A program made the translations under genes and the position numbers. From the sequence record NC_070992.1: a stretch of DNA of 64,000 bases. The stretch is one strand, 5' to 3'. This stretch comes from Escherichia phage Paul. Shown piece by piece: positions 32,484 to 33,047 of this stretch. The first letter of the stretch is position 1, and each line of letters opens with the position of its first letter. Under the pieces are notes generated by a model, which ran no database searches, had not been told where the DNA came from, and worked only from the letters and a program-made list of their open reading frames with translations.

Positions 32484-33047
32484 TTAGTAAGACACATCAC
32501 CACTTGAATGGGACATGTTGCTCTTGACGAAGTAACAATACTTGCCAAGACCTTCATTAATTTCTTGAAGCATACTCTGATCGACAGGGTAGGAGGCTAA
32601 ATCACCATCAAACTCATCCATCTTCTCAATAATACACATCAAGGTCATGCACATATCAGAGAGCATACCATCCATATCTAGATCAGCATTCCCCTCTGAG
32701 AACCAAGCGTGGGATAGGTAGTTAGCTGCTGTAGCATCCACTTTAACACAGTGGTAACGCATACGTTCAGCAATACGATCTCCTACTTGTCGTGCGTAAT
32801 CTTCCAGCTCATCAAACATACCATGAACACCCTGAAATCCTGCACCAGAGACGTTCCAGTGGTAGTTTTTAGCTTTGATATGCAAGAGTTCCATGTTAGC
32901 TTGTAAGCAGCTCAGGATGTGTTCTATGCTGTTTCCACTAATCATGCCTTGCATCGTTTCAAGGCGAGAGATTGATAGGTCGGACCGGTCTAACATACTA
33001 TAGCTGTCACGACCAATATCAGGTAAATCAAAGACATTCTTATGCAT
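32484..33047 (-). CDS. Dps/ferritin-like protein
   Basis: AKNYHWNVSGAGFQGVHGMFDE...DRIAERM matches the Dps HWN.RG..F..VH region; start probably an internal Met. Confidence 0.55.
   Translation of the reverse strand: MHKNVFDLPDIGRDSYSMLDRSDLSISRLETMQGMISGNSIEHILSCLQANMELLHIKAKNYHWNVSGAGFQGVHGMFDELEDYARQVGDRIAERMRYHCVKVDATAANYLSHAWFSEGNADLDMDGMLSDMCMTLMCIIEKMDEFDGDLASYPVDQSMLQEINEGLGKYCYFVKSNMSHSSGDVSY

Follow-up and report, generated by a model that had tools for sequence, protein, structure and literature searches.

The window analysed here was a 64,000-nucleotide stretch of Escherichia phage Paul (NC_070992.1), in which a gene for a Dps-family protein was located on the minus strand. The features of the locus were as follows:

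32484..33047, minus strand: coding sequence of a Dps-family mini-ferritin, the ortholog of gp67 (187 aa plus stop; Pfam, PHROG and PDB matches)
32913..33047, minus strand: acidic N-terminal extension, residues 1–45, in the Kuravirus-type clade only (alignment, charge and AlphaFold2 model)
32520..32927, minus strand: predicted Dps core, residues 41–176, a four-helix bundle with a short BC-loop helix (AlphaFold2 and Foldseek)
32766..32861, minus strand: predicted ferroxidase-centre segment, residues 63–94, with H63, W64, H75, D79, D90 and E94 (alignments)
33040..33369, minus strand: gp68 homolog of 109 aa, PHROG 10984 (ORF and profile match); its 3' end shares 8 nt with the start of the Dps gene
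33057..33060, minus strand: GGAG ribosome-binding site, 9 nt 5' of the Dps ATG (sequence reading)
32448..32476, minus strand: weak terminator-like hairpin, 8 nt past the Dps stop (consensus scan; 11 bp in the stem, 7 of them GC, with AACTTATTTA after it)

The Dps ORF, with its ATG at 33047 and its stop codon at 32484–32486, encoded a protein of 187 aa (21.2 kDa). A sequence-only reading of this DNA had placed the gene at 32484–33047; the ORF call and direct inspection of the sequence gave exactly these limits, and the peptide quoted in that reading (KNYHWNVSGAGFQGVHGMFDE...IAERM) was present in the ORF without a mismatch. The ATG was located within ATGCATAA, which includes the stop codon of the upstream gp68 ORF, and an overlap of 8 nt is typical of translational coupling. 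A longer reading of the ORF, from a TTG start, extended to 33095. The ATG at 33047 was preferred over the TTG because a GGAG site precedes it, because it overlaps gp68, and because phiEco32, SU10, and ECBP2 have the same start annotated. A wrong start, with the N-terminal extension as an artefact, was ruled out by the GGAG site, the overlap, the conserved motifs of the extension, and its dN/dS of about 0.14.

The hairpin 3' of the Dps gene precedes the gene of a small membrane protein, gp66 (32243–32422). Its folding energy was −16.6 kcal/mol with a z-score of only −1.5 against shuffles, marginally above shuffled sequence, and it was rejected as a strong terminator.

Several other elements were observed in the window. 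Four paralogous ORFs of 65–69 aa belonging to PHROG 4939 were found on the minus strand (31756–31965, 33442–33651, 33651–33860, and 33860–34057), three of them as a tandem array shortly upstream of gp68 and Dps, the fourth downstream near the thioredoxin gene. They shared a basic TR(K/E/Q)xAR segment and a C-terminal Y(Y), and had no Pfam match. Just downstream of ThyX, a 55-aa ORF (30950–31117, minus strand) encoded a very acidic protein with 8 Cys in CxxC-like spacing (CTKCG...CPCCGVCEYCC), a composition that suggests a small zinc-ribbon or metal-binding protein. The octamer TAATGTAT occurred in 7 copies (9326, 9710, 12312, 13066, 22145, 22216, and 28383), all outside the Dps region; 2.6 copies were expected, and 7 were never reached in shuffled sequence. 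The SU10 late promoters, which the phage sigma factor recognises, are reported to have this octamer as their consensus (PMC4281155).

Profile and sequence searches assigned the protein to the Dps family, with matches well beyond what chance would give. The Pfam Ferritin family (PF00210) matched with a score of 31.1 bits, above its gathering cut-off of 24.5, covering residues 55–109 only, and all close homologs of Paul Dps carried the same domain. PHROG 3636 matched with an E-value of 6.6e-55 (profile positions 2–149 of 149 on residues 35–180). In the PDB sequence search, about 55 of the 60 matches listed at E<=1 were Dps-family or ferritin proteins, with a best E-value of 2.5e-9; the best matches among solved structures were all Dps proteins (M. 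smegmatis Dps2, B. subtilis MrgA, and B. anthracis Dlp-2; E about 1e-9). The NCBIfam equivalog for the DNA starvation/stationary phase protection protein Dps (NF006975) scored 35.1 bits and did not reach its cut-off of 114. By these scores the Paul protein is a member of the Dps family but not an equivalog of enterobacterial Dps, and it was considered a divergent member because it falls below the NCBIfam equivalog cut-offs for bacterial Dps.

The AlphaFold2 model, built on an alignment of 89 sequences, had a mean pLDDT of 87.8. Helices were predicted at residues 41–65, 71–98, 107–112, 125–146, and 154–176, with pLDDT of 92–99. The short helix 107–112 in the BC loop of the model is the feature that separates Dps from maxi-ferritins, and the modelled protein had the four-helix bundle and the BC helix and was without the C-terminal E helix of maxi-ferritins. 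In a Foldseek search against the PDB, the top 50 matches were all Dps or Dps-like; the best superpositions had an rmsd of 1.1–1.5 Å over 134–138 residues and a target-normalised TM of 0.8–0.9. The earlier assignment to a Dps/ferritin-like family was thus upheld by PF00210, PHROG 3636, the Dps matches in the PDB, and the modelled fold. The HMM search that it had called for gave PF00210 above its gathering score and placed the protein in no unrelated family.

The ferroxidase centre was examined by alignment. Residues 56–95 of Paul Dps matched residues 44–83 of E. coli Dps over 40 residues without a gap, and H63, W64, H75, D79, D90, and E94 aligned to H51, W52, H63, D67, D78, and E82. We take H51, H63, D67, D78, and E82 to be the ferroxidase ligands of the E. 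coli protein. In the match to Listeria Dps, where residue 42 of the query corresponded to residue 10 of the chain, the ligand positions fell on H31, H43, D47, D58, and E62, which are presumably the ferroxidase ligands of that protein. All six Paul residues were invariant in 16 sequences of the phage clade, down to 48% identity, and they were present as well in homologs with 31–45% identity from Salmonella phage 7-11, Proteus phage Privateer, and Aeromonas phage LAh_8. Five of them (H63, W64, H75, D90, and E94) were invariant across 89 phage and bacterial sequences. The Dps signature that the sequence-only reading had seen around the ferroxidase-centre histidines therefore proved sound, with intact, invariant ligands in ungapped register with E. 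coli Dps. In Paul Dps, the ligands would lie at a dimer interface. Judged from the profile matches and the model together, the Paul gene is a real Dps-type mini-ferritin gene in which the predicted iron-oxidising site is intact.

Met (15 residues) and Cys (5 residues) were unusually frequent in the protein. Within MLSDMCMTLMC (residues 128–139), a segment at the beginning of helix D, M128, L129, D131, M134, and L136 were invariant, and M132 and C133 were nearly so. The triplet M132-C133-M134 was specific to the clade and did not appear in the bacterial consensus.

Selection on the gene was estimated as dN/dS by the Nei-Gojobori method. Among the Dps genes of Paul, phiEco32, and SU10, dN/dS was 0.04–0.09, indicating strong purifying selection, and against the 81%-identical ortholog of ECBP2 it was about 0.05. 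By region, dN/dS was 0.03 in the core and about 0.14 in the N-terminal 45 codons; the extension evolved about four times faster than the core, yet under purifying selection. A degenerate or pseudo-enzyme copy was ruled out by the invariance of all ligands and by dN/dS of 0.03–0.09. Mass spectrometry of concentrated phage SU10 detected gp67 by 6 peptides, the most among the middle-gene products, with 35.8% coverage. The Dps gene is expressed, and it is expressed with the middle genes for replication and nucleotide metabolism.

About 65 phages of Escherichia and Shigella, from the phiEco32 group (Gordonclarkvirinae, Kuravirus), had 90–95% nucleotide identity to the 6 kb around the Dps gene. Paul is a Kuravirus (phiEco32-like) coliphage. 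The identification of Dps in this group is not new. In the GenBank record of phiEco32, gp67 has carried the label "DNA-binding protein; member of the Dps family" since 2008, and the gene belongs to PHROG 3636. CDS67 of SU10 ("contains a DPS domain") was described as a middle gene common to the five C3-morphotype phages then sequenced (PMC4281155), and Dps homologs were noted in Privateer and Kuravirus phages (PMC7881722). The discovery value is accordingly small: GenBank, PHROGs, and these two genome papers already had the gene, its placement in the Dps family, and the fact that C3 podophages conserve it. In many Kuravirus records (for example IME267, ES17, CHD5UKE1, and EcoN5) the Dps gene of these strictly lytic phages was labelled 'integrase'; the label is an annotation error, evidently propagated between records.

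By tblastn, relatives were found in 135 of 50,697 phage records. Full-length Dps was held by 96 of the 97 Kuravirus-type records matching the region, and the remaining matches were mainly in C3-type phages of Aeromonas, Proteus, Salmonella, and Cronobacter, with a few in Synechococcus and Streptomyces phages. In IMG/VR, 493 stretches among 2.9 million contigs encoded relatives with the [KRQ]N[YF]HWNV motif. Dps-fold proteins in BFVD came from Bacillus phage G, Lactobacillus phages LP65 and Semele, and many uncultured phages. The description of Dps as an uncommon phage gene held for phages overall and failed for the Kuravirus-type records, nearly all of which have it. With the single Paul sequence as query, only 13 cluster representatives of 1.84 billion reached E<=1e-10, which places the phage Dps clade, as far as sequence comparison goes, at a distance from cellular Dps. 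A recent capture from the host was considered and rejected: E. coli Dps matched only at E of 0.09–0.15 over 40 residues and its similarity was very weak outside that segment, and the closest non-phage relatives were 25–40% identical. The Dps gene is thus rare phage-wide, a core gene in this lineage, and no recent host capture.

In all four lineages (Kuravirus, 7-11, Privateer, and LAh_8), the Dps gene was located inside a block of nucleotide-metabolism and replication genes (ThyX, thioredoxin, dCTP deaminase, PhoH, and DNA polymerase subunits). Kuravirus, Privateer, and LAh_8 have a gp68 homolog directly upstream of Dps, and in 7-11 the two genes are 1.3 kb apart; in each C3-podophage locus that was examined, the homolog was upstream of Dps at a distance of no more than about 1.3 kb. 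Of the 80 viral Dps loci taken from IMG/VR, the 10 in the C3 lineage all had the homolog and the other 70 did not. Since the co-occurrence is confined to one phage lineage, the pairing may be inherited synteny and not a general functional coupling. The AlphaFold2 model of gp68 was a generic SH3/Tudor/KOW-like beta-barrel with a C-terminal helix (pLDDT 68.5); the model had no PDB match below E 0.01, and the protein had no Pfam match. With a generic barrel, no match in either database, and co-occurrence in a single lineage, gp68 was set aside as an informative partner.

The genes 3' of Dps differed between the lineages. In 7-11, Privateer, and LAh_8, Dps was followed by the gene of an ATP-cone protein, and a counterpart was looked for in the Paul window and not found. 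The three post-Dps proteins were about 90–99 aa long and mutually similar, and were labelled variously as hypothetical, ribonucleotide reductase (NrdD-like), or Zn-ribbon/ATP-cone regulator:

L003 3911–4210 (7-11): post-Dps protein
L004 3898–4194 (Privateer): post-Dps protein
L005 3929–4201 (LAh_8): post-Dps protein

In LAh_8, Dps was located between NrdG and the ATP-cone protein, close to NrdD (anaerobic ribonucleotide reductase). In Privateer, the short ATP-cone gene directly 3' of Dps was annotated as an NrdD-like ribonucleotide reductase. Such contexts would fit a protein that stores iron and donates it to iron-dependent enzymes of the phage or host, for example the Fe-S activase of the anaerobic ribonucleotide reductase, in place of a protective role. 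No NrdD or NrdG homolog was found in the 64-kb Paul window by tblastn, yet Dps is kept almost throughout the Kuravirus-type records, and none of the Paul neighbours ThyX, thioredoxin, and dCTP deaminase is an iron enzyme. A short infection cycle would also leave little time for storage and re-release. A role as iron donor was therefore judged highly improbable, and a functional link to the anaerobic ribonucleotide reductase, found in the context of LAh_8 and Privateer only, was rejected for Paul.

The charge of the protein was examined next to its family label. Paul Dps was acidic (pI 4.69; net charge per subunit −15). Residues 1–45 contained 4 K/R and 7 D/E, and the C-terminal 11 aa contained no K/R. 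Two conserved motifs were seen in the extension: MH(K/N)NxFDLP opens the protein, and SxxRLExM contains R28, which was invariant. The extension was modelled with low confidence (pLDDT 52–67) apart from a helix at residues 25–37, and it was absent from the homologs of 7-11, Privateer, and LAh_8 (146–156 aa). A Lys/Arg-rich flexible tail, as in E. coli-type Dps, was looked for at both ends of Paul Dps and found at neither. The canonical DNA-binding device is absent because both termini are without a basic tail.

These data bear on the possibility that the protein binds and compacts DNA, coating or condensing phage or host DNA as Dps does in stationary-phase E. coli. The family name and the annotations in phiEco32, SU10, and PHROG 3636 suggest such a role, and so does the location of the gene within the replication module. 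In addition, the homologs of 7-11 and Privateer, but not Paul Dps, bear short basic N-terminal tails (MLGARPKRPAPES in 7-11 and MARDMIRSRPSLRR... in Privateer), of the kind used for DNA binding. On the other side stand the termini of Paul Dps, neither with a basic tail, and its strong negative charge, and the DNA-binding label was inherited from the family name and not drawn from an assay. A number of bacterial Dps proteins that lack basic tails, among them those of Listeria innocua and Agrobacterium, are not known to bind DNA. Acidic Dps proteins can still bind DNA via cation bridges, so the missing basic tail does not exclude DNA binding. Taken together, DNA compaction by Paul Dps was considered unlikely. 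Since the protein is strongly acidic, with an acidic extension in place of a basic tail, Kuravirus Dps most likely acts without binding DNA itself, and on its sequence the database label "DNA-binding" is unsupported.

Whether the protein acts only in the infected cell was also considered. A virion-associated Dps, for example one packaged with the DNA in the prolate head, is suggested by the Privateer homolog, which was found by mass spectrometry in CsCl-purified virions (PMC7881722), and by the coverage of gp67 in concentrated SU10. The N-terminal extension of Kuravirus, with its conserved terminal motif, could serve such an association. Long proteins from uncultured phages to which UniProt gives the name 'Prohead protease' likewise contain Dps-fold domains in BFVD. 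However, DNA polymerase, thioredoxin, PhoH, and sigma factor were detected in the SU10 sample as well, which argues for carry-over from the lysate, and the supplement text of the SU10 cryo-EM and mass spectrometry study, in which major gel bands were analysed, makes no mention of gp67 or Dps. Moreover, Dps is a middle gene and not a late structural gene (PMC4281155), a dense iron-loaded shell of about 250 kDa could band together with phage in CsCl, and the one long Dps fusion with a readable context (P0239) was outside any head-morphogenesis module. Association with the virion was therefore regarded as quite unlikely.

The long phage and metagenome proteins with Dps-fold domains measured 290–777 aa (BFVD A0A6J7XDU5, A0A6J7WPK9, and A0A6J7WIS1; P0224, P0239, P0245, and P0247). 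Some of them carried the UniProt name 'Prohead protease', and a fusion to a protease is putative. In ten long Dps-containing representatives, the ferritin domain was the only Pfam domain. P0224 had two Dps domains. P0239 had an N-terminal PHROG 16075 domain, and its neighbours were genes for sigma-factor-like, methyltransferase, and AAA proteins; no head genes were among them.

A further idea joins parts of these readings: a phage-adapted iron/peroxide nanocage that does not bind DNA and is tethered by the acidic extension, and possibly by the SH3-like gp68, to the replication compartment or the prolate capsid. We regard it as very unlikely. If true, Dps would be a mini-ferritin associated with the virion and comparable to the ferritin-like cargo found in encapsulin shells.

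The reading we prefer, at a probability of roughly 0.7, is that Paul Dps is a dodecameric mini-ferritin that sequesters iron with peroxide during replication, with the Kuravirus version working without DNA binding. As in other members of the family, 12 subunits would form a hollow shell. Fe(II) would bind at di-iron ferroxidase sites at the dimer interfaces, made by H63, H75, and D79 of one subunit and D90 and E94 of its partner, and would be oxidised there, preferentially by H2O2. The oxidised iron would then be stored as a ferric mineral core. Both Fenton reactants would be removed in this way, which would lower the formation of hydroxyl radicals while phage DNA is replicated, and the protection would coincide with dNTP synthesis by redox-sensitive enzymes. 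The family, the fold, the conserved intact ligands, the purifying selection, the expression, and the gene context are the ground for this reading; the dodecamer, the ferroxidase activity, and the benefit to the phage are what we infer by analogy with the family. On the same analogy, peroxide-driven iron sequestration during replication is the most likely role, and the two roles proposed in the sequence-only reading, protection of DNA from oxidative damage and management of iron, are plausible. A literature search found no biochemical assay or functional test of any phage Dps.

The neighbouring gene offers a possible specific source of peroxide. Flavin-dependent ThyX can leak H2O2 in air, and H2O2 derived from ThyX is a possible specific link to Dps. 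A literature search for an oxidase or peroxide link of ThyX found no paper.

The wider interest is that a whole lineage of lytic podophages keeps a predicted-intact Dps under strong purifying selection, beside genes of dNTP synthesis. This bears on whether lytic phages need to control Fenton chemistry in a short infection of tens of minutes. Replacement of the 'DNA-binding' label, or of the wrong 'integrase' label, is also at stake.

Paul Dps was compared with known Dps proteins. The Lys-rich N-terminal tail of E. coli Dps is DNA-binding. The Paul protein is without this tail, whereas its ligands align position for position with those of E. coli Dps (PDB 1dps and 1f30). With the bacterial proteins MsDps2, Bacillus MrgA, and Dlp-2 (PDB 2z90, 2chp, and 1jig), it shared 22–26% identity (E about 1e-9), the four-helix bundle with the BC helix, the ligands H, H, D/E ... 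D, E, and the adjacent Trp. Unlike these three proteins, Paul Dps has the 45-aa acidic N-terminal extension, the M132-C133-M134 triplet, and its richness in Met and Cys.

Among phages, Salmonella 7-11 gp073, Proteus Privateer gp068, and Aeromonas LAh_8 gp125 were 31–45% identical to Paul Dps in the core; they agreed with it in their ligands and in lying among nucleotide-metabolism genes, and each had a homolog of gp68 close by. The closest likeness was to the gp67 proteins of phiEco32 and SU10. Paul Dps shared 98.4% amino acid identity with phiEco32 gp67 (ABY52868) over all 187 residues, with 3 non-synonymous differences, and 96.3% with SU10 gp67 (YP_009152918) over 187 residues, with 8 non-synonymous differences. 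Both genes have the same start, the same overlap with gp68, and the same neighbours (thioredoxin, ThyX, and dCTP deaminase) as the Paul gene. With only a few conservative substitutions between them, Paul Dps and the gp67 of phiEco32 and SU10 are effectively the same protein.
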